The translations under genes and the position numbers were made by a program. The notes beneath the pieces are model-generated. The model was given only the letters and a program-made list of their open reading frames with translations, did not search any database and was not told where the DNA came from. A DNA stretch of 51,893 bases, taken from positions 1 through 51,893 of the forward strand of contig JAIMBG010000002.1 in assembly GCA_023511555.1 (NCBI GenBank), given 5' to 3'. Source of the DNA: Acetobacteraceae bacterium (GTDB lineage: Bacteria > Bacillota > Sulfobacillia > JAIMBG01). Below are positions 3,636 through 48,377 of this stretch, piece by piece; the stretch's first letter is position 1, and each line of letters begins with the position of its first letter.

Positions 3636-4369
3636 AGGAAGGACAGGGCGGAAGGTCATTCTTTTCCTGGCTGGCCGGCACCCTGGGGGCGGGGCTCATC
3701 GTGCTGGTGCCCGTGGTGACGACGGTCTACCTGCTCTGGGTGCTCTTCCGCTTTGCCGACGGCCTTCTGGGCCGGTTCGTGGCCCCCTACCTGCCCTTCC
3801 CCATGCCCGGCCTGGGCCTGGCCCTGACGCTGCTTATCGTGCTGGGCTTTGGGCTTCTGGCCACGCACTTCATCGGCCGGCGGATCATCCGGGCGGCCGA
3901 GGCCGTGCTGATGAAGATGCCCCTGGTCCGGGGCATCTTCGTCACCATCAAGCAGCTTGTGGATGCGGTGGCCCACAACGAGAGAAAGGCGTTCCGACGG
4001 GTGGTCATGCTAGAGTACCCCCGCCCCGGGGTGTACTCCCTGGGGTTCATGACCGGCGAGGGCTTTACCGAGGCCCGGGAGCTGCTGAAGGAGAACCTGG
4101 TGTCCGTCTTCATCCCCACCACCCCTAACCCCACCTCCGGCATGATGGTGATAGTGCCCCGGAGCCAGGTGACCCTCCTCAACCTGTCGGTCGATGACGG
4201 CATCAAGCTGGTGATCTCTGGGGGGGTCATATCGCCGCCGGAGCGCCTGCAGGCCCCGGCGGACCGCGGGGAGCAGCCGGCCGGGCCGAGGCCTGACGGC
4301 AAACGCCTGCTCCAGCCCCGGGAGGAAGGGCCGGGGCAGGGCGGCGGAGGGGGGGTGGGGGCGCCGTGA
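3632..4369 (+). CDS. DUF502-family membrane protein
   Basis: Two N-terminal TM helices, then PLVRGIFVTIKQLVD, FRRVVMLEYPRPGVYSLGFMTGE and IPTTPNPTSGMMVIVP, which I recognise as typical DUF502 blocks. The start overlaps the dgkA stop. Confidence 0.75.
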   Translation: MKEGQGGRSFFSWLAGTLGAGLIVLVPVVTTVYLLWVLFRFADGLLGRFVAPYLPFPMPGLGLALTLLIVLGFGLLATHFIGRRIIRAAEAVLMKMPLVRGIFVTIKQLVDAVAHNERKAFRRVVMLEYPRPGVYSLGFMTGEGFTEARELLKENLVSVFIPTTPNPTSGMMVIVPRSQVTLLNLSVDDGIKLVISGGVISPPERLQAPADRGEQPAGPRPDGKRLLQPREEGPGQGGGGGVGAP

Positions 4370-5508
4370 GCCGCCGCCGGTTGAGGCGCGGCCTGGCGCT
4401 GGTCCTGACCCTGGCCTGCGGCCTGCTGCTCCCTCTGGCCTGTGCCCGCCCCGCCCCTTCCGGCCCTGCCCCCCCGCCCGGCTCGGGGGCCGAGCCTGCG
4501 TCCCCTTCGGAGCCTCCGGCGCCGGGGGCCGGGCAGCCCTCCCCGCCGGCCGGCGGTGGGCCGGCCGCCCCGCCTCCCGTGCCCCCGGGCGGCGCGCAGG
4601 CAGGGATTCCGTGCCCCCTCGACGGGGTGCCGGCCCCGCCGAACCGGGTGGACCAGGTGGCCCTGGCGGTGGTCCTGGACAACCACTCCGCCGCCCGGCC
4701 CCAGGCCGGGCTCAGCTCCGCGTGCCTGGTGTATGAGTTCCCTGTGGAGGGCGGCATGACGCGGCTGCTTGCCTTCTTCCTCCACGCCGAGGCGGCGGTG
4801 GTGGGTCCGGTGCGGAGCGCCCGGGACTACATGCTTGACCCCTGCCTGGAGACGGGGGCGATCCTGTGCCACATCGGCGGGAGCCCGCAGGCGTATGAGC
4901 GGCTGGCCCGGGTGAAGGTGCGCTCGCTCGATGACATGAAGGGGGCGGGCGCGTACTACCGGGTGTCCTACCGGCGGCCGCCCCACAACCTGTACACCGC
5001 CACGTCCGCACTGCGGCAGGCGGCGGCGGCCCGGGGCTGGGCCCGCCGCTCCGCGGGCGCGGCCTGGGGGCTGGCCCCCGGCCCGGCCGTCAGCCCCGCA
5101 ACGGGGGGGGAGCCTGCCGCGACGATATCCCTCCGGTACCCCGGGCCGGGGGAACCCTACCTGGGCTACCGCTACGACCCGCAGGCCGGCGTCTTCCTGC
5201 GGCTGGTGTCAGGCGAGCCCCAGATCGACGCTGCCAACGGCCAGGCCGTGTCGGTCGCCAACCTGGTGGTCCTGCGGACGGTCGTGACTCCGATCGCCGG
5301 CGACCCCGAGGGCCGGCTGAGGGTGCAGATGGTTGGGGAGGGCGAGGCCCTGCTGTTTCGGGGGGGGCAGGTGTTCAAGGGGCGCTGGTCGAAGGCGGCC
5401 CCTGCCCTGCCCACCCGGCTCTCCGGCCCCGCCGGCCAGCTTGTGCTGGGGCCGGGGCCGACATGGGTGGAGGTCGTGCCCGAGGAAGCTGTGGTGCAGT
5501 GGAGGTGA
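4366..5508 (+). CDS. DUF3048-domain lipoprotein (YerB-like)
   Basis: Signal peptide with Cys (LPLAC), then a Pro/Ala-rich linker. Further blocks are VVLDNHSAARPQAGLSSACLVYEFPVEGGMTRLLAFF and ARDYMLDP. The GTGA start/stop overlaps the upstream gene. Confidence 0.7.
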   Translation: MSRRRLRRGLALVLTLACGLLLPLACARPAPSGPAPPPGSGAEPASPSEPPAPGAGQPSPPAGGGPAAPPPVPPGGAQAGIPCPLDGVPAPPNRVDQVALAVVLDNHSAARPQAGLSSACLVYEFPVEGGMTRLLAFFLHAEAAVVGPVRSARDYMLDPCLETGAILCHIGGSPQAYERLARVKVRSLDDMKGAGAYYRVSYRRPPHNLYTATSALRQAAAARGWARRSAGAAWGLAPGPAVSPATGGEPAATISLRYPGPGEPYLGYRYDPQAGVFLRLVSGEPQIDAANGQAVSVANLVVLRTVVTPIAGDPEGRLRVQMVGEGEALLFRGGQVFKGRWSKAAPALPTRLSGPAGQLVLGPGPTWVEVVPEEAVVQWR

Positions 5509-27502: not shown

Positions 27503-27577
27503 GGGCCCGTAGCTCAGGGGCAGAGCAACCGACTCATAATCGGCAGGTCGCAGGTTCGAGCCCTGCCGGGCCCACCA
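27503..27577 (+). tRNA. tRNA with CAT anticodon (elongator Met or lysidine-modified Ile2; not initiator)
   Basis: Acceptor stem GGGCCCG/CGGGCCC, D-arm GCTCAGGGGCAGAGC, anticodon loop CTCATAA, T-arm GCAGGTTCGAGCCCTGC, and an encoded CCA. A G1-C72 pair and the lack of a 3xGC anticodon stem argue against the initiator. Confidence 0.9.
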
Positions 27578-27600
27578 CAGACTTGGGGGGCGGCCGCCGG

Positions 27601-27629
27601 TTGTCAGCGCGCGCGGGACGCGGTATAAT
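27601..27629 (+). promoter_or_regulatory. consensus-like sigma-A promoter upstream of tRNA-Glu/tRNA-Val
   Basis: TTGTCA (27601-27606), a 17-nt spacer, then TATAAT (27624-27629). Confidence 0.6.
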
Positions 27630-27663
27630 GGTGGCGCAGCGGTGGCGCGGGGCGCCACCCGGC

Positions 27664-27738
27664 GGCCCCATGGTCTAGAGGTCAGGACACCACTCTTTCA
27701 AGGTGGTAACGGGGGTTCGATTCCCCCTGGGGCCACCA
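27664..27738 (+). tRNA. tRNA-Glu (UUC)
   Basis: Acceptor stem GGCCCCA/TGGGGCC, D-arm GTCTAGAGGTCAGGAC, anticodon loop CTTTCAA, T-arm GGGGGTTCGATTCCCCC, and an encoded CCA. Confidence 0.92.
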
Positions 27739-27744
27739 GCACGT

Positions 27745-27819
27745 GGGCGGTTAGCTCAGGGGAAGAGCGCTTGACTCACATTCAAGAGGTCGGAGGTTCG
27801 AGCCCTCTACCGCCCACCA
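27745..27819 (+). tRNA. tRNA-Val (CAC)
   Basis: Acceptor stem GGGCGGT/ACCGCCC, D-arm GCTCAGGGGAAGAGC, anticodon stem-loop CTTGA-CTCACAT-TCAAG, T-arm GGAGGTTCGAGCCCTCT, and an encoded CCA. Confidence 0.92.
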
Positions 27820-38934: not shown

Positions 38935-39570
38935 GTGCCCGAAGTCTTGATTTTCACCGATGGAGCTGCCAGGGGGAATCCCGGGGAGGCCGGGATCGGC
39001 ATCGTGCTGTGCAGCCCCGACGGATCCGTGGTGGCCGAGCACAGCGAGTACATCGGCCTCGCCACGAACAACGCGGCCGAGTACTGGGCCGTGATCCGGG
39101 GCCTCGAGGACGCCCGGGCCCGGGGCTTCAAGCGGGTCAAGGTCATAGGGGACAGCGAGCTTTTGATCCGGCAGCTCCAGGGGACCTACAAGGTCCGCAA
39201 CCCCGGGCTGAAGCCGCTCCACGCCCGGGTCGAGGCTCTGATGAGGTCCTTTGCGCAGGTGGAGCTGGAGCACCTCAGCCGCGAGAAGAACCGCCAGGCC
39301 GACCGTCTGGCCAACCAGGCCATCGACAGGGTGATTCGGGACAGCGTCGAGGCCGCCGCCCAGGTGGCTACCCTGGGGACGGCCCCGACCCCTCCCGAGG
39401 GGCGGGGCGAGGCCCCGGCCGGCGCACCGGGTGCCGGCGCTCCCGCCCCCTCGCGGCCGCCCCGGCGGCGTTGGTTCCGCCGGTATCGGCGCCCTCGGGG
39501 AGCCCGTCCCGGACGGATGCGTCGGACCCGGCGGGGGGCCCGGCCGGGCGAGGGTGGAACGACGGGCTAG
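38935..39570 (+). CDS. rnhA: ribonuclease HI-like protein with Arg-rich C-terminal tail
   Basis: IFTDGAARGNPGEAGIG, ATNNAAEYWAVIRGLE, GDSELLIRQL and NRQADRLAN (the DEDD catalytic pattern). The C-terminal 70 aa are Pro/Arg-rich. Confidence 0.8.
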   Translation: MPEVLIFTDGAARGNPGEAGIGIVLCSPDGSVVAEHSEYIGLATNNAAEYWAVIRGLEDARARGFKRVKVIGDSELLIRQLQGTYKVRNPGLKPLHARVEALMRSFAQVELEHLSREKNRQADRLANQAIDRVIRDSVEAAAQVATLGTAPTPPEGRGEAPAGAPGAGAPAPSRPPRRRWFRRYRRPRGARPGRMRRTRRGARPGEGGTTG

Positions 39571-39715: not shown

Positions 39716-40088
39716 GACTGGCAACCAGGCCGGGCGGCCGCGGGCACAGGTGCCGCAAGGCCGTGTCCGAGGAAAGTCCGAGCTTCGCAGGGCAGGGCGC
39801 CGGGTAACGCCCGGTGGGGGCGACCCCAAGGAAAGTGCCACAGAAACACACCGCCGGCCTCGCGCCCCGGGCGCGGGGCGGGCAAGGGTGAAATGGTGCG
39901 GTAAGAGCGCACCAGCGGCCGGGTAACCGGCCGGCTGGGTAAACCCCGCCCGGAGCAAGGCCAAATAGGAGGGGGATGACGCGGCCCGCCGACCCCTCGG
40001 GTTCGGCCGCTGGAGGGGCCGGGCGACCGGTCTCCTAGATTGATGGCCGCCCCAGACAGAACTCGGCTTACAGGCCTGGTTGCTGAAG
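39716..40088 (+). ncRNA. rnpB: RNase P RNA, bacterial type A
   Basis: Universal blocks are present: GAGGAAAGTCCGAGC (P4 5' strand), CACAGAAACA, GGGTGAAATGGTGCGGTAAGAGCGCACC, GGGTAAACCCCGCCCGGAGCAAGGCCAAATAGG and ACAGAACTCGGCTTA (P4 3' strand). P1 pairs GCAACCAGGCC (39721-39731) with GGCCTGGTTGC (40073-40083). The ends are approximate. Confidence 0.92.
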
Positions 40089-40199: not shown

Positions 40200-41372
40200 A
40201 TGTTAGCTGGCGCGGCGGGCGGGCGCAGAGCGGGCGCCGGGCGCGGTCTCAGGGGCGCCAAGGCGGAGGGCGCGGGCCTGGGGGTGCCTTTGCCGACGGA
40301 GCGCTTCGACCAGCGGCAGACGGTGTTCGCCAGGGCGCGGCGAGGGGAGCTGGGGGAGGCCGCGCTGGCCTGGGCCCTAAACGACGGGGTCCTGGAGTTC
40401 GACATTGCAGGAAACTGGGGCCTGGGAGCGGCGGCTTTGAGCCGGGCGGGGTTTGGCCTTGCCGGGGACCTGGAGTCCCTGCTGGACGGGCCCGTCGCGG
40501 CCCGGCGGGTGGCGGTGCCGGGGCCCCGGGCCATGTCCCGGGTCATCAAGGAGGTGGCCCGGTACCTCGGGGCAGACCTGGTCGGCGTGACCCGCTTCCA
40601 CCCTGCTTTCCTCTACAGCCACGACCAGGAAGGGCGCCCTCTGGCCAGCGACCATGCATTCGCCGTGGTCGTGGGACGGGCCATGGACTACGGCCACCTG
40701 CTCGGCAGCCCGGACCTGCCGTCCGGCGCCGCCACGGGCAAGGGCTACGCCGAGGTGGCTTTCATCGCTGCTTTCCTGGCCTCGTACATCCGGCGGCTGG
40801 GCTACTCTGCCCACGGGCACCGGAATCAGCGGGTGCTGCAGGTGCCCCTTGCGGTGAGCGCCGGCCTGGGGGAACTGGGCCGCTGTGGATTCGTGGTGTC
40901 GGCGCGGCTGGGGCCCCGGTTCCGGCTGGCCTCGGTGACCACCGACCTGCCGCTGGAGCCCGACCGGCCCGTCCGGCTGGGGGTAGAGGGTTTCTGCCGG
41001 GCCTGCCGCAAGTGTGCCCGGGCCTGCCCCTCGGGTGCCATCCCCGAGGGGAACCCGGTGGTGGTGCGGGGCGTGCGGCGGTGGCACATCGATGCCCTGC
41101 GCTGCTTCGGCTTCTGGGTCTCTCTGCGCGAGCGCTCGTACCAGTGCGCCCGCTGCATCTCCGCCTGCCCCTGGAACAAGCCTGACGCTCTTTACCATCG
41201 GGCCGCGGCCGGCCTGGTGCGCCGGGTGCCGGCCGCGTCCCGGGCACTGCTGTGGCTTGACGATGCCCTGGGGTTCGGGCGGCCGCGCCGGGCCGGAGGG
41301 GTGGGAGGAAAGGGAAGAGGTTCTGCGGACACTGCCGCCGGGGGCGGGGCCGCCCGCGGTCCCTGGTGGTGA
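40200..41372 (+). CDS. reductive-dehalogenase-family (RdhA-like) 4Fe-4S protein
   Basis: ERFDQRQTVF and IKEVARYLGADLVGVT, with two ferredoxin-type clusters: FCRACRKCARACPSGAI and CARCISACPWNKP. The start is uncertain; GTG 40284 is also possible. Confidence 0.6.
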   Translation: MLAGAAGGRRAGAGRGLRGAKAEGAGLGVPLPTERFDQRQTVFARARRGELGEAALAWALNDGVLEFDIAGNWGLGAAALSRAGFGLAGDLESLLDGPVAARRVAVPGPRAMSRVIKEVARYLGADLVGVTRFHPAFLYSHDQEGRPLASDHAFAVVVGRAMDYGHLLGSPDLPSGAATGKGYAEVAFIAAFLASYIRRLGYSAHGHRNQRVLQVPLAVSAGLGELGRCGFVVSARLGPRFRLASVTTDLPLEPDRPVRLGVEGFCRACRKCARACPSGAIPEGNPVVVRGVRRWHIDALRCFGFWVSLRERSYQCARCISACPWNKPDALYHRAAAGLVRRVPAASRALLWLDDALGFGRPRRAGGVGGKGRGSADTAAGGGAARGPWW

Positions 41373-41466
41373 GGAAGCCCTCGCGGCCAGCAGGCGTTGC
41401 GGGCGGCATCGGGGCAGGGCCGGGCATTTGGCCCGGCAACGGCTCTGATCCTGAGAACGGCCTTTA

Positions 41467-41670
41467 GACCCCGGACCCCGGGCCGGGGGGCGCAGCTAGA
41501 GTCTGGCAGCTAGCTCCTTTCTAACGGACGTGGTCGACCTCGACGATGCGCCAGAGCGGGTCCACCACCTCGAGGGTCGGAGGCGAGTAAGCGTCCACTG
41601 TCTCACCCCCCTTATCGGGGTTGTGGGGATCCTCCCGTGCAGCTCTGCCCCCGCCCGGGCGTCCGGGGTC
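41467..41670 (-). repeat. copy A of an approximately 200-nt duplicated cassette (inverted-repeat arms bracketing sORF A)
   Basis: The arms GACCCCGGACCCCGGG (41467-41482) and CCCGGGCGTCCGGGGTC (41654-41670) are complementary apart from 1 nt. The interior aligns with 42493-42693, including the SD sequence, the start codon and CTCGAGGGTCGGAG. Confidence 0.75.
41521..41598 (-). CDS. sORF A, candidate RiPP precursor peptide (25 aa: MDAYSPPTLEVVDPLWRIVEVDHVR)
   Basis: GTG start lies 4 nt after AAGGGGGGTGAGA (Shine-Dalgarno-like); TAG stop. It is a paralogue of sORF B, with synonymous differences at conserved residues. It is not in the ORF track because it is below the size cutoff. Confidence 0.6.
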   Translation of the reverse strand: MDAYSPPTLEVVDPLWRIVEVDHVR

Positions 41671-41767
41671 ATCTGCCTGCCAGGGCTGCCCTGTCTGCCA
41701 GGGCCGCCCGCTTTCAGCCCTTCTTGCTCGGCCTCCCTCCGCCTCGGGCCGGCCGCCGCCGGGGGCG

Positions 41768-42316
41768 TCATCCGGCCTCGGGCCGGTGCCACTTCTTGAG
41801 GAACCCCCCGAGTGCCCGGTACAAGGGCAGGAAGAGGACGGAGTTGATGCCGCTGTGGAGCAGGTTGAAGGGGACGATAGTGGGCAGGATCATGGGCACC
41901 ACAACCGCCCGGGGCACGCCCAGGTAGATGGGGGTCACGATGAGGTTGGCGGGGACCATGACCGCGGCACGGGCTATGATGCCGCAGGCCAGCCCCAGCA
42001 CCGCCCCTCCCCAGCTCGGCCTGCGCCGGTAGATCAGGCCCGCCACGCATACGAAGGCGCTGGCCGCGATGAAGTGCATCAACCCTCCCCAGGGCCCGCC
42101 CTTGCCGGTGATCAGCACGAACAGCGAAGCGGTGATCAGTGCCAGTACCGCTCCCACGCCGGGGCCCAAAGCGAAGGAGCCCATCACGATCGGCAGGTCC
42201 CCCGGCGAGTACAGCAGGAATGGGGCGGCGGGGAGGACGGGAAAGTGTACGGTCACCTCGAGCAGGAGAGACAAGCCGGCCAGGATCGCGGTGGTCGTAA
42301 GCTTGCGTGCGTTCAA
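41768..42316 (-). CDS. ECF-transporter S-component-like membrane protein (RibU/ECF_trnsprt-like)
   Basis: 182 aa with about 5-6 TM helices. HFPVLPAAPFLLYSPGDLPIVMGSFALGPGVGA, GGLMHFIAASAFV and IVPFNLLHSGINSV resemble the RibU-type substrate-capture subunit. TTG start lies 7 nt after AGGAGG. Confidence 0.65.
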   Translation of the reverse strand: MNARKLTTTAILAGLSLLLEVTVHFPVLPAAPFLLYSPGDLPIVMGSFALGPGVGAVLALITASLFVLITGKGGPWGGLMHFIAASAFVCVAGLIYRRRPSWGGAVLGLACGIIARAAVMVPANLIVTPIYLGVPRAVVVPMILPTIVPFNLLHSGINSVLFLPLYRALGGFLKKWHRPEAG

Positions 42317-42492
42317 GGCGCAACCTCCTAAGCGGCCCGGCCCCTGGGGACTTCCGCCGCGGTGTCCCGGGGCCCGGCGAAGTCGTTGGCATGCGGACGC
42401 GCCTTGCGGCGCGCCCTCGCGTGACCACCCGCCAATTCTACGCCGTACCGGGCGATTCCTCCTGGCAGGCTTTCGGGCCTGGGGGCCAGCCG

Positions 42493-42693
42493 CCCCCGGA
42501 CGCCCTGCAGGGCTACAAGCTACGTTGCGGCGGCTCCTTGACGTCTAAGGCGATATCACGTCGACCTGGACGCTACGCCACGAGGGATCAAGAAGCTCGA
42601 GGGTCGGAGCGACGTACGTGTCCACGTCCTCACCCCCCGCCGAGAAGTGTCCCACGCCTGCCGCATCGGCCCATCCCTGAGGGCGTCCGGGGA
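42493..42693 (-). repeat. copy B of the duplicated cassette (inverted-repeat arms bracketing sORF B)
   Basis: The arms CCCCCGGACGCCCTGCAGGG (42493-42512) and CCCTGAGGGCGTCCGGGGA (42675-42693) are complementary apart from a 1-nt bulge. The right arm starts 2 nt after the radical SAM stop codon. Confidence 0.75.
42545..42625 (-). CDS. sORF B, candidate RiPP precursor peptide (26 aa: MDTYVAPTLELLDPSWRSVQVDVISP)
   Basis: GTG start follows GGGGGGTGAGG; TAG stop. It lies 69 nt downstream of the radical SAM gene on the same strand. It shares MD.Y..PTLE..DP.WR.V.VD with sORF A. Confidence 0.6.
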   Translation of the reverse strand: MDTYVAPTLELLDPSWRSVQVDVISP

Positions 42694-42694
42694 C

Positions 42695-43987
42695 CTACGT
42701 TGGGCGGCTGGCTTGCACCGCGAGGATCATCTTGACGTATCCCCTCTTGAGGTCGTCCACCGACATGGTGTCGGTCTCACATGTAGGGCAGGTCAGCTCG
42801 TACCGCGAGAAGTCGTGCCCCAGTATGGTCACCCCCAGCTCCCGGGCCCGCTCCCGAATGGCGGTACCGGGGAAGGGGGTCAGCATGCTGACCGTGACCC
42901 GGTCGGGCCGGAGCGTGCGGATGAACTGGCAACTGGCCTCCAGGCTCTGCAGCGTCTCCCCCGGCAGGCCCACGATGAACGTCGCGTAGACCTCCAGGCC
43001 GGCCGCCTGGGCGTTGCGCACCGCCTCCCACGCCTGCTCCACCTTGATCCCCTTGGTGGCGCGGTCCAGCACCTCCTGGGTGCAGCTTTCGATTCCGACC
43101 AGCACCCCGGTGCAGCCGGAGTCCCTCAGCATCTCGGCGACCCCGCGCGTCAGGCTGTCGGCCCGGGTGTTGCAGGCCCACCGCACGCCCAGGCCGCTGG
43201 AGCCGAGCAGCCGGCACAGCTCCTCCAGGCGGCGGCGGCTGAGCACGAAGGTGTCGTCGCAGAACAGCACCTTGTTCACGCCGTAGTCGGTGCCCAGGGA
43301 CGCGATCTCTTCCACCACCCGACGCGGCGAGTGGGTTCGGACGCGGGTCCCCGAAAACGCAGAGGCTGAGCAGAACGTGCAGCCGAAGGGGCACCCCCGC
43401 GCCGACCCCACCAGCCCCTGCTGCTCCACGTCGTAGAGGTGCATGGGGAGCAGGTGCCGGGCGGGGGGCGGGAGGCTGTCGAGGTCGTGCACCGGCTCAG
43501 GTTGCGGGCCGACGGTGATCCTGCCGTTCCCCTCCCGGACCGCCAGGCCGGGACAGCCCGAGAGCGGCTCCCCCCGGTCCAGCCGCCGCACGGCCTCGAC
43601 GATCGCGGTCTCCCCCTCATAGAGGCAGACGGCGTCGGCCACGCCCGTGTCCAGAAGCCGCCTGTGCTCGAAGGTGGCGTGGTTGCCCCCCAGGATCAGG
43701 GCGGCCTCCGGCAGCAGGGCCCTGACGGTCCGTGCGGCCTCCACAGCCCCCGGCTCGGTGAACGACATGTTCAGTGAGATTCCGACCAGGCGGGGGGGAG
43801 GCTGAAGGTAGCCGGCTATGTCCCGGCCCGACAGCTTCATGACGGCCATGTCCAGGACGGAGGGGCGGGCCCCTGCCCTCTCGAGCACTGCAGCCAGGCT
43901 GGCCAGCCCCAGCGGAGGGGCGAAGCGGGATGAGGAATGGCGAAAGGCGTGATAAGGCCACGGCGGGTTGACCAGAAGCACTCTCAT
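42695..43987 (-). CDS. B12-binding-domain radical SAM protein
   Basis: N-terminal Rossmann-like cobalamin-binding-type region (RVLLVNPP...LGLASLAAVLERAG...LVGIS...ILGGNHAT), followed by the CxxxCxxC cluster motif GCPFGCTFCSA and a TIM-barrel core. Confidence 0.85.
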   Translation of the reverse strand: MRVLLVNPPWPYHAFRHSSSRFAPPLGLASLAAVLERAGARPSVLDMAVMKLSGRDIAGYLQPPPRLVGISLNMSFTEPGAVEAARTVRALLPEAALILGGNHATFEHRRLLDTGVADAVCLYEGETAIVEAVRRLDRGEPLSGCPGLAVREGNGRITVGPQPEPVHDLDSLPPPARHLLPMHLYDVEQQGLVGSARGCPFGCTFCSASAFSGTRVRTHSPRRVVEEIASLGTDYGVNKVLFCDDTFVLSRRRLEELCRLLGSSGLGVRWACNTRADSLTRGVAEMLRDSGCTGVLVGIESCTQEVLDRATKGIKVEQAWEAVRNAQAAGLEVYATFIVGLPGETLQSLEASCQFIRTLRPDRVTVSMLTPFPGTAIRERARELGVTILGHDFSRYELTCPTCETDTMSVDDLKRGYVKMILAVQASRPT

Positions 43988-44018
43988 GGCCCGCTCCTCC
44001 CGACCTAACCCGCGCTCA

Positions 44019-44372
44019 TTACTCGTCGGGCACCAGGAACTTGCCCTCTTTCAGGGCTTCCAGGAAGCGTTCCAGATCCCTTCGCAGAACGTCTTCAGGG
44101 ACGCGGGGGAAGCGCTGCGCCAGCCGGGCCAGCATGGCCTGGGGGGGAGTACCCCCGTCGCACATCTCCCAGACCATCAGGCCCACATCGTTCACCAGGC
44201 CGACGCGCCCCGAGACCAGGTCGATGAGGGCGGTCTTGCCCTCGTAGGCCACGGAGTCCACGTCGTCGCGCCGGCGGGGGCAGGCCGACCCGGCCCCGGT
44301 GCCCCCAGGGGCGGGGTCCGCCGGTGCCGCCTCGGCCGCTGAGCGGGCGGCTGTGTCTCCACCCTCCCCCAT
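44019..44372 (-). CDS. PqqD-family protein (stand-alone RiPP recognition element-like)
   Basis: ALIDLVSGRVGLVNDVGLMVWEMCDGGTPPQAMLARLAQRFPRVPEDVLRRDLERFLEALKEGKFLV fits the PqqD pattern. ATG 44372 lies 7 nt after AGGGGGTG. The ORF-track start at 44498 lies in AT-rich intergenic DNA. Confidence 0.75.
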   Translation of the reverse strand: MGEGGDTAARSAAEAAPADPAPGGTGAGSACPRRRDDVDSVAYEGKTALIDLVSGRVGLVNDVGLMVWEMCDGGTPPQAMLARLAQRFPRVPEDVLRRDLERFLEALKEGKFLVPDE

Positions 44373-44634
44373 GCTGGGCACCCCCTGCGGTTTTGCAGTC
44401 GTTCCCTGAGTGAATAATACGCTACAAATTAGGGCTTTCCTCCTGCAAAGGGAAAAAACTACATCGAAGCCTGCGCCTGGCGGCTTGTGGACGGCCACCC
44501 CCTCTGGGGCGCCTCTGTGAAGGACTCGCAGCCCCGGGCGTGGAACCTCTCCCCCGGGAGCCGGTTCACCATAGAGAGACTCGACGGCCGGTCACTGGCG
44601 CCCCCGTGGGGCGGCAGGGAAGGGGGGGTCTTAG

Positions 44635-45933
44635 GTGGGTGAAGGACGGCGGTGGTCAGGAGGGGGGCGGGCGGTCTGCGCCCTGTCCCTGGCGGTCTTG
44701 GTTTCGGTCCTGGCGTCCGCGCCGGCCGTTGCCGGCGGGGGGCTGGGGGCGGCCGCCGGGGGTGCCCCCCCGGCGGGGGGGGGGACGGCGGCGTCCTTCC
44801 CCCTCTCGCTGGACAGCGCGGTCGCCCTGGCGCTCGACTCAAGCCCGCGGCTGAAGGCGGCCGAGCTTGCCCTAAGCCAGGCCCGGACCGCGCTTAAGAT
44901 GGCGGAGGCGGCGGCCGACGACGCCCCGGAGGAGCCGCCGGAGGTGCCTTCCATCCCCGGGGTCCCTCTGCCGGCGGTGACCGTCCGGGACTACATCGAG
45001 CTCGCCAGGCTAAAGGAGCTTGGCCCGCGGCAGGCCAGGGCGGCCGTGGCGGTGGCGGAGGCGGCGCTCCACACCGCCGAGCTCGGGGTGCGCTTCGAGG
45101 TGGAGAAGGCGTTCTACGAGCTGATCAAGGCCAAGGGCCTTCTGGACGTGGCTCGGCTCGCCCTGCAGCGGGGGGAGAGGCAACTCGACCAGGCCAGGGC
45201 GTTCCTGGAGGCGGGGACGGTGGCCCGGACCGACCTTCTGGCCGCCGAGGTCGCGGTGGCCGGGCTGAAGGCTAACCTGGTCACAGCCGACAGGCTGTAC
45301 CGGTTAGCCATGATGAACCTCAATCGGGCGATGGCCTACAGCCTGGAAGCGGTATGGGAGCCGGCGGAGGGGGAGGGTGAGATCGGCGGGCTGGGCGTGG
45401 CGGCCCCTGGAGAGGGGTCGGGCGCGGAGGGCGGCGGCACAGCCGCCAGCGGCGCAGAGGCCGCGGAACAGCCCAACCTGGGGTCCGCCCTGGCCCTGGC
45501 GCTTCAGAGCCGCCTGGAGCTAATCCAGGCCCGCGAGGAGCTGGAGTGCCGCCGCCTGGACCATGACATACTGTCGAGGTACTACGCCTCCAACGTCTGG
45601 GAGCGCCGGCAGGCCGCTTACGCGGTCCAGTCCGCCGAGGCGTCGCTGCGTGAGAAGGAGTTGCAGGTGGAGTTCGAGGTCCGCTCCGCCTGGCTCAGCG
45701 TGGACGATGCCCGACAGCGCGTCGCGCTGCTGAACAAGGCCGTGGAGCAGGCCAGGGAGGGCCTCCGCCTGGCAGAGCTGCGCTATGCGGCAGGGCTGGC
45801 AACCAGCCTGGAGGTGCTCTCGGCCCAGGTCAGCCTCAGCCAGGCCGAGGCCCAGGTGGTCCAGGCCGCCTGCGACCTCAAGGTGGCCCTGGCGGCGTTC
45901 CGGCTGGCGGCAGCCTGGGGGGTGGCAGAGTGA
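44635..45933 (+). CDS. TolC-family outer membrane efflux protein
   Basis: A signal-like N-terminus, then two OEP repeats (LSLDSAVALALDSSPRLKAAELAL...; ...LEVLSAQVSLSQAEAQVVQAACDLKVALAAFRLA). Confidence 0.8.
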   Translation: MGEGRRWSGGGRAVCALSLAVLVSVLASAPAVAGGGLGAAAGGAPPAGGGTAASFPLSLDSAVALALDSSPRLKAAELALSQARTALKMAEAAADDAPEEPPEVPSIPGVPLPAVTVRDYIELARLKELGPRQARAAVAVAEAALHTAELGVRFEVEKAFYELIKAKGLLDVARLALQRGERQLDQARAFLEAGTVARTDLLAAEVAVAGLKANLVTADRLYRLAMMNLNRAMAYSLEAVWEPAEGEGEIGGLGVAAPGEGSGAEGGGTAASGAEAAEQPNLGSALALALQSRLELIQAREELECRRLDHDILSRYYASNVWERRQAAYAVQSAEASLREKELQVEFEVRSAWLSVDDARQRVALLNKAVEQAREGLRLAELRYAAGLATSLEVLSAQVSLSQAEAQVVQAACDLKVALAAFRLAAAWGVAE

Positions 45934-46916
45934 GCGCATTGCGCCGGGTCATAGCCGTCGTCCTTGTGACCGGCGTCCTGGGGGCGGTGGTGGCGGCCCT
46001 GGCCTGGCCCCGCCGGGCGCCCCAGTGGCTGGAGGCCTCGGGCACCGTCGAGGCCACCGAGGTGGCGGTGGGCGTCCAGGTGGGAGGCCGGGTGGCGGAG
46101 GTGCTGGCGGAGGAGGGGGCCGAGGTGGGCGAGGGCCAGCCGCTGCTCAGGCTGGACAGCCGCGCGGCGGAGCTCCAGGTGCGCCAGGCCCGTGCCGCCC
46201 TGGACGCGGCGGAGGCCTCCCTGGCCAACCTGCGGGCCGGGACCCGCTCCGAGCAGCTCCGCCAGGCCGAGGAGGCGGTCTCCCAGGCGCAGGCGGTGCG
46301 GGACCAGGCGGCCGCCAACCTGGAAACCGTCCGGTCGCTGCTGGCCCAGGGAGCCGCCACCCAGTCGCAGCTCGACGCCGCAGCCACCCAGGCCCGCACC
46401 TCTGAGGCGGCTTACGCCCAGGCCTTGGCACAGCTCGATCTGCTGCGGGCGGGGGCCACCAGCCACGCCTTGCGCATGCAGTCGGCCCAGGTGGAGCAGG
46501 CCAGGGCCGCCCTGGAGCTGGCGGAGCTGCATCTCGAGCAGACGACGGTGGCCTCACCGTCGAACGGAGTGCTGGTCTCGGTCGGCGTGGAGCCGGGGGA
46601 GGTGGTCCCGGTCGGTGCCGCCGTGGCCGTGGTGGCCGACCTTTCCCGGCTGTGGATACGGGTCTATGTGCCTGAGGCCGACCTGGGAAAGGTCTCGGTG
46701 GGCCAAAGGGTGAAGGTCAGGGTGGACGCCTTCCCCGGCCAGGAGTTCTCCGGCCGGGTGGCGTGGATTTCCAGCCGGGCGGAGTTTACCCCCAAGAACG
46801 TCCAGACCCGCGAGGAAAGGGTGAACATGGTGTTTGCCGTCAAGGTGGCGCTGGACGACTCGGGTGGCCGGCTGAAGCCGGGCATGCCCGCCGACGTGAC
46901 CTTCCCCGGCCAGTGA
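45930..46916 (+). CDS. HlyD-family periplasmic adaptor (YbhG-like)
   Basis: TM anchor, lipoyl-like GTVEATEVAVGVQVGGRVAEV...GQPLLRLD, a coiled coil, and a beta-barrel with SPSNGVLVSV and LKPGMPADVTF. The GTGA start/stop overlaps the TolC gene. Confidence 0.85.
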   Translation: MSALRRVIAVVLVTGVLGAVVAALAWPRRAPQWLEASGTVEATEVAVGVQVGGRVAEVLAEEGAEVGEGQPLLRLDSRAAELQVRQARAALDAAEASLANLRAGTRSEQLRQAEEAVSQAQAVRDQAAANLETVRSLLAQGAATQSQLDAAATQARTSEAAYAQALAQLDLLRAGATSHALRMQSAQVEQARAALELAELHLEQTTVASPSNGVLVSVGVEPGEVVPVGAAVAVVADLSRLWIRVYVPEADLGKVSVGQRVKVRVDAFPGQEFSGRVAWISSRAEFTPKNVQTREERVNMVFAVKVALDDSGGRLKPGMPADVTFPGQ

Positions 46917-46961
46917 GGGTTGGGCCCGGGCGGGTCGGCGGGCCAGGGGAGGTAGGGGAGG

Positions 46962-48377
46962 GTGGACAGAGGCCCCGCGGAAGGCAGTGCCCCGGCCGCA
47001 GGGGCGGCGGGCGCGCGGGCGGCCGGTGAGCCCAGGCTGTGGTCGCAGTACCTTCACCTGGGCAAGTACATATACTGGCTGGTTCTGGCTTCGGTGCTTA
47101 TCAGCGTCGGCGGCCAGCTCGAGGCGGCGTTGTTCCCGGTCTACTTTCAGGAACTGGGCGGCTCCCCTCGCGCGCTCGGCTGGTACATGTCCCTTACGCA
47201 CCTGCTCATCGGCGGGTTCATGATCCTGGGCGGGTGGGCGGCCGACCGCTACGACCGCCGCTGGCTGTTCGTGCTGGCCTCCGGCCTGGCCCTGGGGCGG
47301 TACGTAATGCTGGCCGCGTCGCCCAACTGGATATGGCTCTATCCGGCACTCCTGCTGCTGGTGGGGGCCTCGGTCCTCTCCAATCCGCTGTTCTTCAGCC
47401 TGACAGCGGACCTTTCGCCCCCGGGCCGGCGCGGGGCGGCGTTCGCCTTCGCCAACGGCGCGCTGTCGCTGGTGGGGGCGCTCACGCCGCTGGCGGGAGG
47501 GATCGTCTACCAGTTCAAGGGATTCAGGCTGCTGCTGTGGGCGTGCGCCGGCCTGGCGGCCGTGGCGGCCTACCTCCGCAGCCTGCTGATAGAGCCGCGC
47601 AAGCTGCAGGCCGGCGCCGTTCCAGCCAGCGGCGGGGCGGCTTCCGCCGCAGTCCCGAAGGGAGCGGGCGCGCCCATGGGAGCCGCGCCGGAGGGCCCCG
47701 GCGGGGCCCCTGCACGGTCGCCTGCCGGGCCATCCCGGCCGGGGCTGAAGGACCCCTTCCGGGAGGTGGGCCTGGCCATATGGCAGGCGGTCCACACTCC
47801 GGAGCTGGTGCTGGCCCTGGTGGCCCTGGGGGTGCTGTCGTTCGTCATCACCCTGGCCCAGGTCTACTACCCCCTCTATGCCCTAAACGAGCTCAGGCTT
47901 CCCGTGGGGTGGGTGGGGGGGCTTTACTCGTGGCAGTGCGTGGCGGGGACCCTGGCGGGGATGGCGGTGGGAGGGCTGCTGGTGCGCCGCCTCCACCTCT
48001 GCGTGGCCGGGTCGGCCGCGGCGGCGGCCCTGGCGGCCCTGGGCCTGGGTCTGGGAAGATCGCTGCCCTGGGCGTTCGTGGCGTTCGGGCTGGCGGGGGT
48101 GTGCAGCGGGGTGGCCATGCCCGCCTCGATGGTGTGGATCTCCGCCAACAGCCCGCCGGGCAAGATGAACACGGTGTACGCCGCCTTCCGCTGCGTGCTC
48201 ATCTTCGCCAACATGCCCGCACCCGCCTGCGGCGGGCTGCTCTGGTCGCGGTTCGGGCCCCAGGCGATGCTGCACGCCCAGTTTTGGCCCGCTGCGGTGT
48301 TTTTCGTAGGGTTCGCGGCGTTCCTGGGCCTAAAGCGTGGGCTTACTCCGAGCCGGGCACGGACTGGGGCGGCCTGA
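46962..48377 (+). CDS. MFS transporter
   Basis: About 12 predicted hydrophobic helices, an MFS loop motif GGWAADRYDRRW, and a long central loop. The start is uncertain. Confidence 0.75.
   Translation: MDRGPAEGSAPAAGAAGARAAGEPRLWSQYLHLGKYIYWLVLASVLISVGGQLEAALFPVYFQELGGSPRALGWYMSLTHLLIGGFMILGGWAADRYDRRWLFVLASGLALGRYVMLAASPNWIWLYPALLLLVGASVLSNPLFFSLTADLSPPGRRGAAFAFANGALSLVGALTPLAGGIVYQFKGFRLLLWACAGLAAVAAYLRSLLIEPRKLQAGAVPASGGAASAAVPKGAGAPMGAAPEGPGGAPARSPAGPSRPGLKDPFREVGLAIWQAVHTPELVLALVALGVLSFVITLAQVYYPLYALNELRLPVGWVGGLYSWQCVAGTLAGMAVGGLLVRRLHLCVAGSAAAAALAALGLGLGRSLPWAFVAFGLAGVCSGVAMPASMVWISANSPPGKMNTVYAAFRCVLIFANMPAPACGGLLWSRFGPQAMLHAQFWPAAVFFVGFAAFLGLKRGLTPSRARTGAA

Follow-up and report, generated by a model that had tools for sequence, protein, structure and literature searches.

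A long-range helix brackets duplicated precursor-like sORFs behind a radical SAM gene and is probably a conserved RNA device

How might a peptide-modifying pathway set the supply of its precursor when the precursor gene lies behind the enzyme gene? In RiPP pathways the precursor peptide is required in far greater amounts than the enzyme, and the known solutions place the precursor gene first and an attenuating hairpin next. The question is raised by a minus-strand operon in contig JAIMBG010000002.1, within the stretch of 51,893 nucleotides that was analyzed as a whole (the window). The operon runs from a PqqD-like chaperone through a B12-binding radical SAM enzyme, sORF B and an ECF transporter S-component (ECF-S) to sORF A. 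Here the candidate precursor is downstream of the enzyme and enclosed by a helix, and this helix has persisted both through a duplication and across distant relatives. The genes and their ribosome-binding sites are as follows.

44019..44372, minus strand: PqqD-like peptide chaperone (RRE), first gene of the operon (Pfam PF05402 PqqD, E = 3.5e-12)
42695..43987, minus strand: B12-binding radical SAM enzyme, 430 aa (PF02310 and PF04055)
42627..42638, minus strand: Shine-Dalgarno region of sORF B, GGGGGGTGAGGA, inside the loop, read from the sequence
42545..42625, minus strand: sORF B, GTG start, 26 aa, MDTYVAPTLELLDPSWRSVQVDVISP
42317..42491, minus strand: 175-nt leader from the copy B helix to the ECF-S start codon, carrying GCCUGCCAGG (42470-42461)
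41768..42316, minus strand: ECF transporter S-component gene, 182 aa, between the two cassettes (PF12822, E = 1e-19)
41601..41611, minus strand: Shine-Dalgarno region of sORF A, GGGGGGTGAGA, read from the sequence
41521..41598, minus strand: sORF A, GTG start, 25 aa, MDAYSPPTLEVVDPLWRIVEVDHVR

The PqqD-like gene is called in the protein collection with 117 aa, and the mechanical ORF reaches 44498. Every one of its NCBIfam PqqD-family matches lies under its cut-off, and the top NCBIfam matches of the radical SAM enzyme, whose stop codon is a TAG at 42697-42695, are all far under theirs. A protein search for relatives of the PqqD protein returned the window's own protein alone; for the radical SAM enzyme only four relatives of at least 42% identity were found among 5.8 billion clustered proteins. 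The cluster, with its PqqD-like chaperone, its B12-binding radical SAM enzyme and its acidic peptides of 24-26 aa, is almost unique in public data. Three sequencing runs match the locus, all of them DNA from a hot-spring metagenome, and their contigs are identical to the window with zero variants.

The sequence-only reading of this DNA had called the sORFs precursor-like, a description that agrees with what surrounds and what composes them. The PqqD-like and B12-binding radical SAM genes adjoin them, and the leader motif Y..P.[LVAI][ED][LVI][LVI] is common to all four sORF types (two in the window and two in the related clusters described below). Six-frame translation of the window and of 170 loci finds this motif in these sORFs alone; it appears to resemble the YxxPxL leader motif of lasso peptides. 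The encoded peptides are acidic, have no hydrophobic stretch and measure 24-26 aa across the cluster types. Judged by their PqqD and radical SAM neighbors and by the conserved leader motif, the sORFs may be regarded as candidate precursors of an RRE-dependent RiPP. Each start codon is preceded by the same layout in all four cassettes, GG(A/G)GGTG(A/G) followed by 4-5 nt.

Each sORF of the window lies between two complementary arms, which on the sense transcript are the following.

42660..42694, minus strand: 5' arm of the copy B helix, directly after the radical SAM stop, with the core CCCCGGACGCCC at 42692-42681
42492..42531, minus strand: 3' arm of the copy B helix, beginning 13 nt past the sORF B stop
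41641..41670, minus strand: 5' arm of the copy A helix, with the core CCCCGGACGCCC at 41668-41657 and G41660 bulged
41467..41497, minus strand: 3' arm of the copy A helix, beginning 23 nt past the sORF A stop

Minimum free energy (MFE) folding and a helix walk gave 34 pairs for copy B (42694-42660 with 42531-42492), four of them G.U; the copy A helix comprises 27 pairs (41670-41641 with 41497-41467). Both are broken only by small bulges or internal loops, and the loops that they enclose measure 128 nt in copy B and 143 nt in copy A. The inverted arms are real, and the observation is stronger than first described. Their positions had been given correctly: in copy B a core of 13 nt with 100% complementarity (42494-42506 / 42680-42692) extends through a one-nucleotide bulge to 42493-42512 / 42675-42693, and in copy A the segments 41467-41489 and 41648-41670 are 87% complementary over 23 nt, with one bulged G. 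The inverted repeat had been put at 16-17 bp, about half the length of the helices, and the loop at 160-170 nt, which is longer than either loop. The copy B arm had also been placed 2 nt after the radical SAM stop codon; it is indeed near the stop, but the helix starts 0-2 nt after it, with G42694 already paired. Folding of both cassettes bears out the proposal that the arms would close the Shine-Dalgarno region and the sORF on the minus-strand RNA.

The long-range helix is present in the MFE structure of both cassettes (z = -3.6 and -3.1 against shuffles). Folded in silico in a 1.45 kb context, the core retains a pair probability of 0.68-0.90 in copy B and of 0.97-1.0 in copy A from 37 to 75 C. 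Cross-pairing of the arm cores between the copies (B 3' with A 5', B 5' with A 3') was considered as well and set aside, its probability being about 0. When each 30-nt segment of the contig was compared with the stretch 130-250 nt downstream on both strands, the two cassettes took ranks 1-3 among 20,654 long-range windows. The flank-flank duplex energy has z = -3.8 for copy B (0/1000 dinucleotide shuffles as good) and z = -3.6 for copy A (1/1000). At 70% G+C duplex energy is a poor statistic, because random 60-70-nt flanks of equal composition reach duplexes of about -53 kcal/mol, and the length of the longest contiguous helix was therefore used too. By this measure the perfect flank helices exceed those of shuffles with P = 0.001 for copy B and P = 0.019 for copy A. 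The helices have no match in Rfam at gathering thresholds anywhere in the window, and a permissive search (E up to 5) over 41300-42800 returned chance-level matches only, which assign them to no known family.

Do these helices occur elsewhere? When genomes and metagenomes were scanned with the radical SAM alignment, the L004/L092 and L010/L094 lineages alone were added, everything else being at most 38% identical. Only two related cluster types were found, L004/L092 and L010; their radical SAM enzymes share 50-53% identity with that of the window. In both, a homologous sORF directly follows the orthologous radical SAM gene (MDVDYEAPVADIVEGDSANFQLKA in the L004/L092 type and MGEPYEAPVVDIVGNDTISVQIHW in L010), and there is one helix per sORF (TGTGGGGCGCGCGGGG with CCCCAGTGCGCCCCACA; TGGGCGCGCGCCG with CGGCGCGCGCCCA). 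These helices begin 2-4 nt past the radical SAM stop, enclose 146-149 nt and comprise 17 pairs in L004 and 13 in L010; the sequence of their arms is unrelated to, or partly changed from, that of the window arms. At distant radical SAM loci (37% identity or less) no comparable bracket was found, the top matches being intracoding and enclosing no sORF. Locus L011 has no adjacent sORF, and L014 (Pelotomaculum), with PqqD and radical SAM genes, differs in layout and contains masked stretches.

Comparison of the cassettes reveals compensatory changes, which the sequence-only reading had proposed to look for in relatives. In a MAFFT alignment of six cassettes the arms of the two subfamilies fall in different columns, so pairs were compared by their rank from the outer end. 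Between copies A and B, outside the shared 12-nt core, both sides of the pair at rank 2 have changed (U.G versus A-U), ranks 15-18 read UA, CG, AU, GC in the one and GC, GC, GC, CG in the other, and the inner helices are wholly different in sequence and paired in both. L004 and L010 differ by a matched one-pair indel (GGGG/CCCC versus GGG/CCC) and by two G-C pairs that have become C-G, and a G.U pair of L004 is G-C in L092. This evidence comes from four cassettes that are not independent, A and B being paralogues and the arms of L004 and L010 partly homologous. In these comparisons pairing has been kept through compensatory changes, as is expected of a conserved structured RNA. Because the related clusters keep the stem with different arm sequences, the bracket is probably a conserved RNA device that controls the cutting out, the stabilizing or the translating of the precursor message.

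Complementarity might also have arisen by chance in G+C-rich intergenic DNA and been inherited, without function, by duplication and descent. Perfect long-range helices of at least 10 bp occur about once per kb, and those of at least 13 bp (three in the window against 0.87 in shuffles) are not rare on a contig of 70% G+C. By duplex energy, the flanks of L004 and L010 do not surpass shuffled flanks of high G+C (z = +1.0 and +1.3), which themselves reach the -53 kcal/mol given above; the whole-cassette fold of L004 has z = 0.14, and its stem is absent from the top eight long-range duplexes at that locus. On the other hand, no long-range duplexes of the contig are more extreme than copies A and B, and the flank pairs exceed shuffles in perfect-helix length in 5/5 cases (P = 0.0045 for L004, <0.0005 for L092 and 0.001 for L010, giving a range of <0.0005 to 0.019 with the window copies). 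The pairing has moreover outlived extensive sequence turnover in which both sides changed, and we regard chance as a highly improbable origin.

Might the arms instead matter as DNA, with no role in RNA, either as mobile or recombinogenic ends (MITE- or attC-like) or as a by-product of duplication under gene conversion? The unit was duplicated with its arms within 1 kb, the arm cores are identical between the two copies, and terminal inverted repeats around about 150 bp have a MITE-like geometry. Duplication of the whole structured unit, as first proposed, is well founded: two 79-nt cores 1027 nt apart are 73% identical, and the arm cores are 1024 nt apart. The proposal of a mobile or recombinogenic mini-cassette, offered as a possible role, is not supported. 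Further copies of the sORF or the arms are absent from the 52 kb window and from the 170 loci, and the orthologous clusters keep the bracketed sORF in its position after the radical SAM gene with different arms. The non-Watson-Crick positions in the helices are G.U on the sense strand five times and A.C once, which argues for RNA rather than DNA, and in 4/5 cassettes the fold of the sense strand is better than that of the antisense strand by 7-16 kcal/mol. Between about 36.9 and 48.4 kb the annotated genes belong to the RiPP operon, to an efflux operon or to housekeeping functions, with neither integrase nor transposase among them, and arms of 13-34 nt would be short for efficient gene conversion. 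An explanation at the level of DNA is the least probable of those weighed here.

The arm motif was also compared with known repeats. CCCCGGACGCCC has three exact matches in the window, all of them in the cassettes, and seven with one mismatch against 5.2 expected; the concern that it could be a generic REP-like repeat is thus not borne out in 52 kb. REP/BIME elements and MITEs are likewise G+C-rich intergenic inverted repeats, with arms around roughly 150 bp. In contrast to them, the three exact cores here stand at one locus, the arms vary between lineages and the interior encodes a conserved peptide; a dispersed repeat was rejected, since within the 52 kb the exact cores are found at two cassettes only and one-mismatch matches are at chance level. 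An integron attC site was rejected because the arms contain no R-box (GTTRRRY / RYYYAAC), the ORF is enclosed by the helix, whereas an attC site of 57-141 bp lies downstream of its cassette ORF, and the neighbors are the housekeeping, efflux and RiPP genes named above. Retron msr-msd a1/a2 pairing likewise closes a unit of about 150-200 nt on the RNA with a long-range stem. A retron was nevertheless set aside, as there is no adjacent reverse transcriptase (the sole RVT_3 match is an RNase H protein at 38935-39570) and the interior is a conserved coding sORF.

Given an RNA device, the helix could act on translation, either by masking and exposing the Shine-Dalgarno site (for example as a thermometer) or by coupling to translation of the radical SAM gene, in which case a ribosome that finishes the radical SAM gene 0-4 nt before the 5' arm would have to melt the outer helix. 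In three of the four cassettes the 5' arm does start 0-4 nt past the radical SAM stop. In copies A and B and in L010, prediction puts most of the Shine-Dalgarno in local hairpins within the loop; its unpaired probability is 0.08-0.19, which in copy B is due to such a hairpin. Yet the Shine-Dalgarno sites lie 20-30 nt within the loop, outside the 5' arms and never in the long-range helix, the local hairpins that mask them vary between the cassettes, and in L004/L092 the site is predicted to be fairly open (0.27-0.51). In copy A the nearest upstream stop codon is that of ECF-S, 97 nt away; since its helix has been kept all the same, the bracket does not depend on a stop codon close by. In silico the helix stays unmelted to 75 C, which argues against a thermometer. 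Control of translation seems to us unlikely, if still a credible role.

The closest precedent for that role is the type I toxin mRNA (hok fold-back inhibition, aapA1 of H. pylori), in which 5'-3' closure governs a very small ORF, the pairing of the ends stabilizing the RNA and controlling its translation (PMC5416894). These RNAs likewise carry a very small ORF on about 200-250 nt with long-distance pairing of their ends. Their long-distance pairing sequesters the Shine-Dalgarno, which here lies outside the helix, and they pair a hydrophobic toxin with an antisense RNA, whereas the present peptides are acidic and belong to a PqqD / radical SAM operon. Assignment to this class was rejected: the Shine-Dalgarno is not sequestered, the peptides have no hydrophobic stretch and an antisense promoter consensus was not found, the sigma-70 scan having detected none on either strand.

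A second possibility is that the helix acts in transcription, as a terminator or pause without a U-tract or as a Rho barrier, so that the precursor cistron would be insulated or read-through into ECF-S and the sequence behind it would be attenuated. In favor of such a role, termination in high-G+C bacteria often takes place at hairpins that lack a distinct U-run, and the 3' arm of copy A is the final element of the operon, 95 nt from a convergent gene. Structures beside precursor genes are familiar from other RiPPs, among them the hairpin between the A and B genes of lasso peptides and the terminators behind lanthipeptide structural genes. Such structures are presumed to set the precursor-to-enzyme ratio; in lasso clusters, hairpins or intergenic regions behind the precursor gene limit downstream expression and have been removed for heterologous production (PMC7549694). 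Those hairpins are local and stand downstream of a precursor gene that comes first in its operon, whereas in the present operon the precursor comes after the enzyme and has an arm of the helix on either side. The loops of 128-149 nt are far from the geometry of a terminator, no intrinsic-terminator consensus was detected in 41300-44700, and with neither a short loop nor a U-run the bracket was not classed as a RiPP terminator or attenuator hairpin. A ribosome on the sORF would, besides, hold the loop open while the 3' arm emerges, and in L004 and copy B a gene that needs expression follows within 25-175 nt. We therefore consider a role in transcription very unlikely.

The reading that we favor, and hold tentatively as a serious possibility, is selective processing and stabilization of the precursor cistron within the polycistronic mRNA. 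On the sense transcript, the helix would pair the region upstream of the ribosome-binding site with the region 13-23 nt past the stop, and selection would keep the pairing while the arm sequences drift. The 27-34 bp helix would be a target for a putative RNase III-type enzyme, an endonuclease specific for double strands, whose cut would release a discrete sORF message of about 170-200 nt. The 5' and 3' ends of this message would stay paired and thereby be shielded from end-dependent decay, so that precursor peptide could be supplied independently of the enzyme and transporter cistrons. A stem of this length and G+C content would stay folded at the growth temperature of a hot-spring organism. 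The cleavage, the stabilization and the effect on stoichiometry are steps that we infer.

Such selective processing would have known counterparts. Helices of 27-34 bp are long enough for RNase III-type enzymes, and RNase III processing stems form from the flanks of 16S and 23S rRNA. A length of 13-17 bp, as in the orthologous helices, is short for classical RNase III substrates, and a near-continuous helix of about 20 bp or more, typical of a processing stem, is seen only in copies A and B of the window. The present case also differs from rRNA in that the cleavage is putative and the enclosed unit is a translated ORF of 25-26 codons with its own Shine-Dalgarno rather than a stable RNA. Selective processing and stabilization by stem-loops is an established means of setting operon stoichiometry, with differential cistron abundance from one promoter as its outcome (PMC10667835). 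There, as in copies A and B, complementary flanks form a long helix (27-34 bp here) in a longer transcript. If the bracket does process or stabilize the precursor message, it would offer a compact and transferable RNA part for cistron stoichiometry that should work at high temperature, and a structural signature for mining unannotated precursor sORFs.

A more far-reaching version, which we consider distinctly unlikely, is that arms, ribosome-binding site and sORF form a portable precursor expression module, excised as a self-contained mini-mRNA that is nuclease-resistant and repeatedly re-translated. The paired 5' and 3' ends would provide both the resistance and the repeated re-translation, and duplication of the module as a unit would add new core peptides with post-transcriptional control retained. 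Were it true, it would constitute a previously undescribed control of precursor-to-enzyme stoichiometry for RiPP clusters in which the precursor lies downstream of the enzyme.

A further potential pairing concerns the gene between the two cassettes. GCCUGCCAGG in the 175-nt leader (42470-42461), a leader that matched no Rfam family even at E up to 5, has its complement at 41684-41675, just ahead of the copy A helix, and the two could bracket ECF-S with a helix of 8-10 bp. Helices of this length at this spacing are frequent by chance; the predicted probability of the pairing is 0.03 at 37 C and about 0.4 at 55-65 C.

The locus is encoded on the minus strand of a contig with 70% G+C that was recovered from a hot-spring metagenome. 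The genes of the operon and their neighbors are arranged as follows.

Features of the locus and its surroundings in the window
44372-44019, minus: PqqD-like peptide chaperone (PF05402), operon gene 1
43987-42695, minus: B12-binding radical SAM enzyme (PF02310 and PF04055), operon gene 2
GTG 42625 to stop 42545, minus: sORF B, MDTYVAPTLELLDPSWRSVQVDVISP, operon gene 3
42316-41768, minus: ECF transporter S component (PF12822), operon gene 4
GTG 41598 to stop 41521, minus: sORF A, MDAYSPPTLEVVDPLWRIVEVDHVR, operon gene 5
41521-44372, minus: extent of the RiPP cluster
ends at 41372, plus: ferredoxin-domain gene, convergent to the operon
44635-48377, plus: efflux operon (TolC-like outer-membrane factor, HlyD-family adaptor, MFS transporter), divergent from the RiPP operon
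39722-40086: class A bacterial RNase P RNA (Rfam, 274 bits)
27503-27816: cluster of three tRNA genes (Rfam)

The RNase P RNA identifies the host as a bacterium, and the efflux operon implies a diderm cell envelope. Together with the tRNA cluster, the RNase P RNA places the locus in a chromosomal housekeeping context and so speaks against its having come from a plasmid or phage. The efflux operon is a plausible exporter candidate for the RiPP product; the transporters in related clusters are of the MFS_3 type.

The cluster looks like an uncharacterised RiPP family, with a PqqD-like chaperone, a B12-binding radical SAM enzyme (for which every NCBIfam model stays below its cut-off) and acidic peptides of 24-26 amino acids that share the leader motif Y-x-x-P-x-[LVA]-[ED]-[LVI]-[LVI]. 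sORF A and sORF B are placed where RiPP precursors would be expected. Both carry a strong SD site, GGGGGGTGAG, 4 nt ahead of the GTG and have in common the pattern MD.Y..PTLE..DP.WR.V.VD, and in a six-frame translation of the window the motif Y..P.[LVAI][ED][LVI][LVI] is confined to them; they are thus real paralogous genes. The SD-like heptamer AAGGAGC recurs 3' of both stops, just ahead of the 3' arm (42533-42539 and 41513-41519, minus; 5 nt from the stop in copy B, 1 nt in copy A). No start codon follows either copy of it, and the heptamer is missing from the related loci L004 and L010.

The inverted-repeat arms that the sequence-only reading had proposed around each sORF are present in both cassettes. 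In copy B, which holds sORF B, 42494-42506 and 42680-42692 are perfectly complementary over 13 nt; copy A has 87% complementarity over 23 nt between 41467-41489 and 41648-41670. The unit is duplicated as a whole, as had been claimed, at a spacing of 1024-1027 nt. The arm motif is shared between the copies and, within the window, is not a generic repeat: the 12-mer CCCCGGACGCCC occurs three times in the window, at the cassettes only, and its one-mismatch matches there are at chance level. Folding of the minus-strand RNA retains the long-range helix within the minimum-free-energy structure of both cassettes (z = -3.6 and -3.1). The length first given for this enclosing helix was too short, as the real helices are about twice as long: 34 pairs in copy B (4 of them G.U; 42694-42660 with 42531-42492, enclosing 128 nt) and 27 in copy A (41670-41641 with 41497-41467, enclosing 143 nt). 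In silico, in a transcript context of 1.45 kb, core-pair probabilities are 0.68-1.0 from 37 to 75 °C, and the probability of cross-pairing between the arm cores of the two copies is about 0.

Since the contig is rich in G+C, chance complementarity has to be taken seriously: the window contains about one perfect long-range helix of at least 10 bp per kb, and 3 of at least 13 bp, versus 0.87 in shuffles. A long-range scan of 20,654 windows, which compared each 30-nt segment with the stretch 130-250 nt downstream on both strands, gave ranks 1-3 to the two cassettes. Shuffled sORF flanks produced an equally good duplex in 0 of 1000 trials for copy B and 1 of 1000 for copy A, and the longest perfect flank-to-flank helix exceeds shuffles at P = 0.001 and P = 0.019, respectively. 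All three tests pick out the cassettes. An origin by chance is judged very improbable. The whole-window scan also contains further very strong long-range duplexes (-55 to -56 kcal/mol) at about 4473-4718 (minus), 44731 (plus) and 21781 (plus).

A comparison with 5.8 billion clustered proteins yielded just four relatives of the radical SAM enzyme at 42% identity or above, and a search with the PqqD protein returned no relative apart from the window's own. These relatives form two lineages, each on freshwater-sediment-type metagenome contigs. In the first (L004 and L092; cluster at 3756-6819 in L004) the order is PqqD, radical SAM, sORF, second radical SAM, MFS; in the second (L010; 28-4150) it is radical SAM, MFS, radical SAM, sORF. 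In the window one enzyme accompanies two precursors; in the L004 type a single precursor accompanies two radical SAM paralogues. Each lineage has a homologous sORF (MDVDYEAPVADIVEGDSANFQLKA in the L004/L092 type, MGEPYEAPVVDIVGNDTISVQIHW in L010) with the same SD-to-start layout as in the window; it lies 3' of the gene orthologous to the radical SAM gene of the window and is bracketed by an inverted repeat, the arms of which are unrelated in sequence to those of the window.

Brackets in the related loci
L004: TGTGGGGCGCGCGGGG (from 5298) with CCCCAGTGCGCCCCACA (to 5479), 17 pairs, 146 nt enclosed
L010: TGGGCGCGCGCCG (4008-4020) with CGGCGCGCGCCCA (4168-4180), 13 perfect pairs and a G.U, 149 nt enclosed

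The 5' arm begins 4 nt (L004), 2 nt (L010) or 0 nt (copy B) after the radical SAM stop. The longest perfect flank helix exceeds shuffles in each locus (P = 0.0045 for L004, <0.0005 for L092, 0.001 for L010). The duplex energies of the shorter L004 and L010 helices are indistinguishable from those of shuffled G+C-rich flanks, and the whole L004 cassette folds no better than shuffles. It is for their position and recurrence, and not for their energy, that we take the orthologues as support.

The check for covariation in related loci proposed earlier brought out compensatory changes between copies A and B, L004 and L010, and L092 and L004, with pairs matched by rank from the outer end; these are four non-independent cassettes, hence no formal covariation statistic is given. 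Copies A and B retain a common core. Beyond it, rank 2 is U.G in copy A and A-U in copy B. At ranks 15-18 both sides differ (UA, CG, AU, GC versus GC, GC, GC, CG), and the inner helices are wholly different in sequence while pairing is retained in both. From L004 to L010 both arms lose one pair (GGGG/CCCC versus GGG/CCC), and two pairs switch from G-C to C-G; in L092 the T of a G.U pair of L004 is replaced to give G-C. In an unbiased arm-versus-arm alignment the non-Watson-Crick positions are five sense-strand G.U and one A.C, and the sense fold beats the antisense by 7-16 kcal/mol in four of five cassettes. Both observations point to an RNA helix formed by the mRNA strand more than to a repeat acting at the DNA level, and a DNA-level cassette is the reading to which we give least credence.

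Our best reading of the helix is that it brackets the precursor cistron post-transcriptionally. More specifically, we tentatively favor a model of selective RNA processing and stabilisation, in which a double-strand-specific nuclease would cut the 27-34 bp helix in the polycistronic RNA, and the freed sORF message, its ends still paired, would resist end-dependent decay, so that precursor message would build up above enzyme message. The analysis itself establishes that the helices exist, are exceptionally strong, withstand heat in silico and recur with compensatory change; cleavage, stabilisation and the shift in stoichiometry are inferred. This principle has been established in operons (PMC10667835), and in RiPP clusters the precursor-to-enzyme ratio is known to be tuned via RNA structures beside the precursor gene (PMC7549694). 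Stem-based tuning of operon stoichiometry is itself already known. We know of no earlier description of a RiPP precursor that lies downstream of its enzyme within a conserved long-range bracket duplicated as one unit, and our literature searches found none. The bracket sits in a nearly unique, uncharacterised PqqD/B12-binding radical SAM RiPP cluster.

A role in translational control, or in coupling to radical SAM termination, would fit the 5' arm adjoining a stop codon in three of the four cassettes and the predicted local masking of the SD site in three; but the cassettes do not conserve this masking, and in copy A no stop codon lies nearby, which leaves such a role unlikely. No terminator or attenuator consensus was found, and the loops measure 128-149 nt; on these grounds the usual terminator or attenuator is rejected. 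That the helix acts while the RNA is being transcribed, whether as insulator or as terminator, seems improbable.

Other identities were also rejected: a known RNA family (no Rfam match), a dispersed repeat (within the available DNA, from the confinement of the 12-mer), an attC site (R boxes absent; the helix surrounds the ORF instead of trailing it) and a retron (no adjacent reverse transcriptase; the RVT_3 match at 38935-39570 is RNase H). Closure of the 5' and 3' ends is already known for the small-ORF mRNAs aapA1 and hok, which resemble the cassettes in their very small ORF and paired ends (PMC5416894); a type I toxin mRNA is rejected, because the long-range helix does not include the SD site and the peptides are acidic.

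Between the operon end and the convergent ferredoxin-domain gene, a 7-bp G+C hairpin (GCCGGGC-ATTTG-GCCCGGC, 41419-41437) lacks a U-run on both strands and has a chance-level CRISPR-DR29 match in Rfam; it may be a bidirectional terminator. A G+C-rich leader of 175 nt (42317-42491, minus) runs from the copy B helix to the ECF-S start codon and matches nothing in Rfam, even with E values up to 5 allowed. The S component, adjoining a B12-dependent enzyme, could be an importer of cobalamin or another cofactor, controlled by a leader or by a riboswitch of unknown class. The sequence GCCUGCCAGG (42461-42470), which comes shortly after the 3' arm of copy B, complements CCUGGCAGGC (41675-41684), which comes shortly before the 5' arm of copy A, so the ECF-S cistron could be bracketed too, beside both cassette helices; this pairing has a predicted probability of 0.03 at 37 °C and of about 0.4 at 55-65 °C, and 10-bp helices at this spacing are frequent by chance (166 seeds in the window). 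On the RNA, two tandem 18-nt direct repeats, CTGCCTGCCAGGGCTGCC and CTGTCTGCCAGGGCCGCC (41673-41708), which are 89% identical, immediately precede the 5' arm of copy A.
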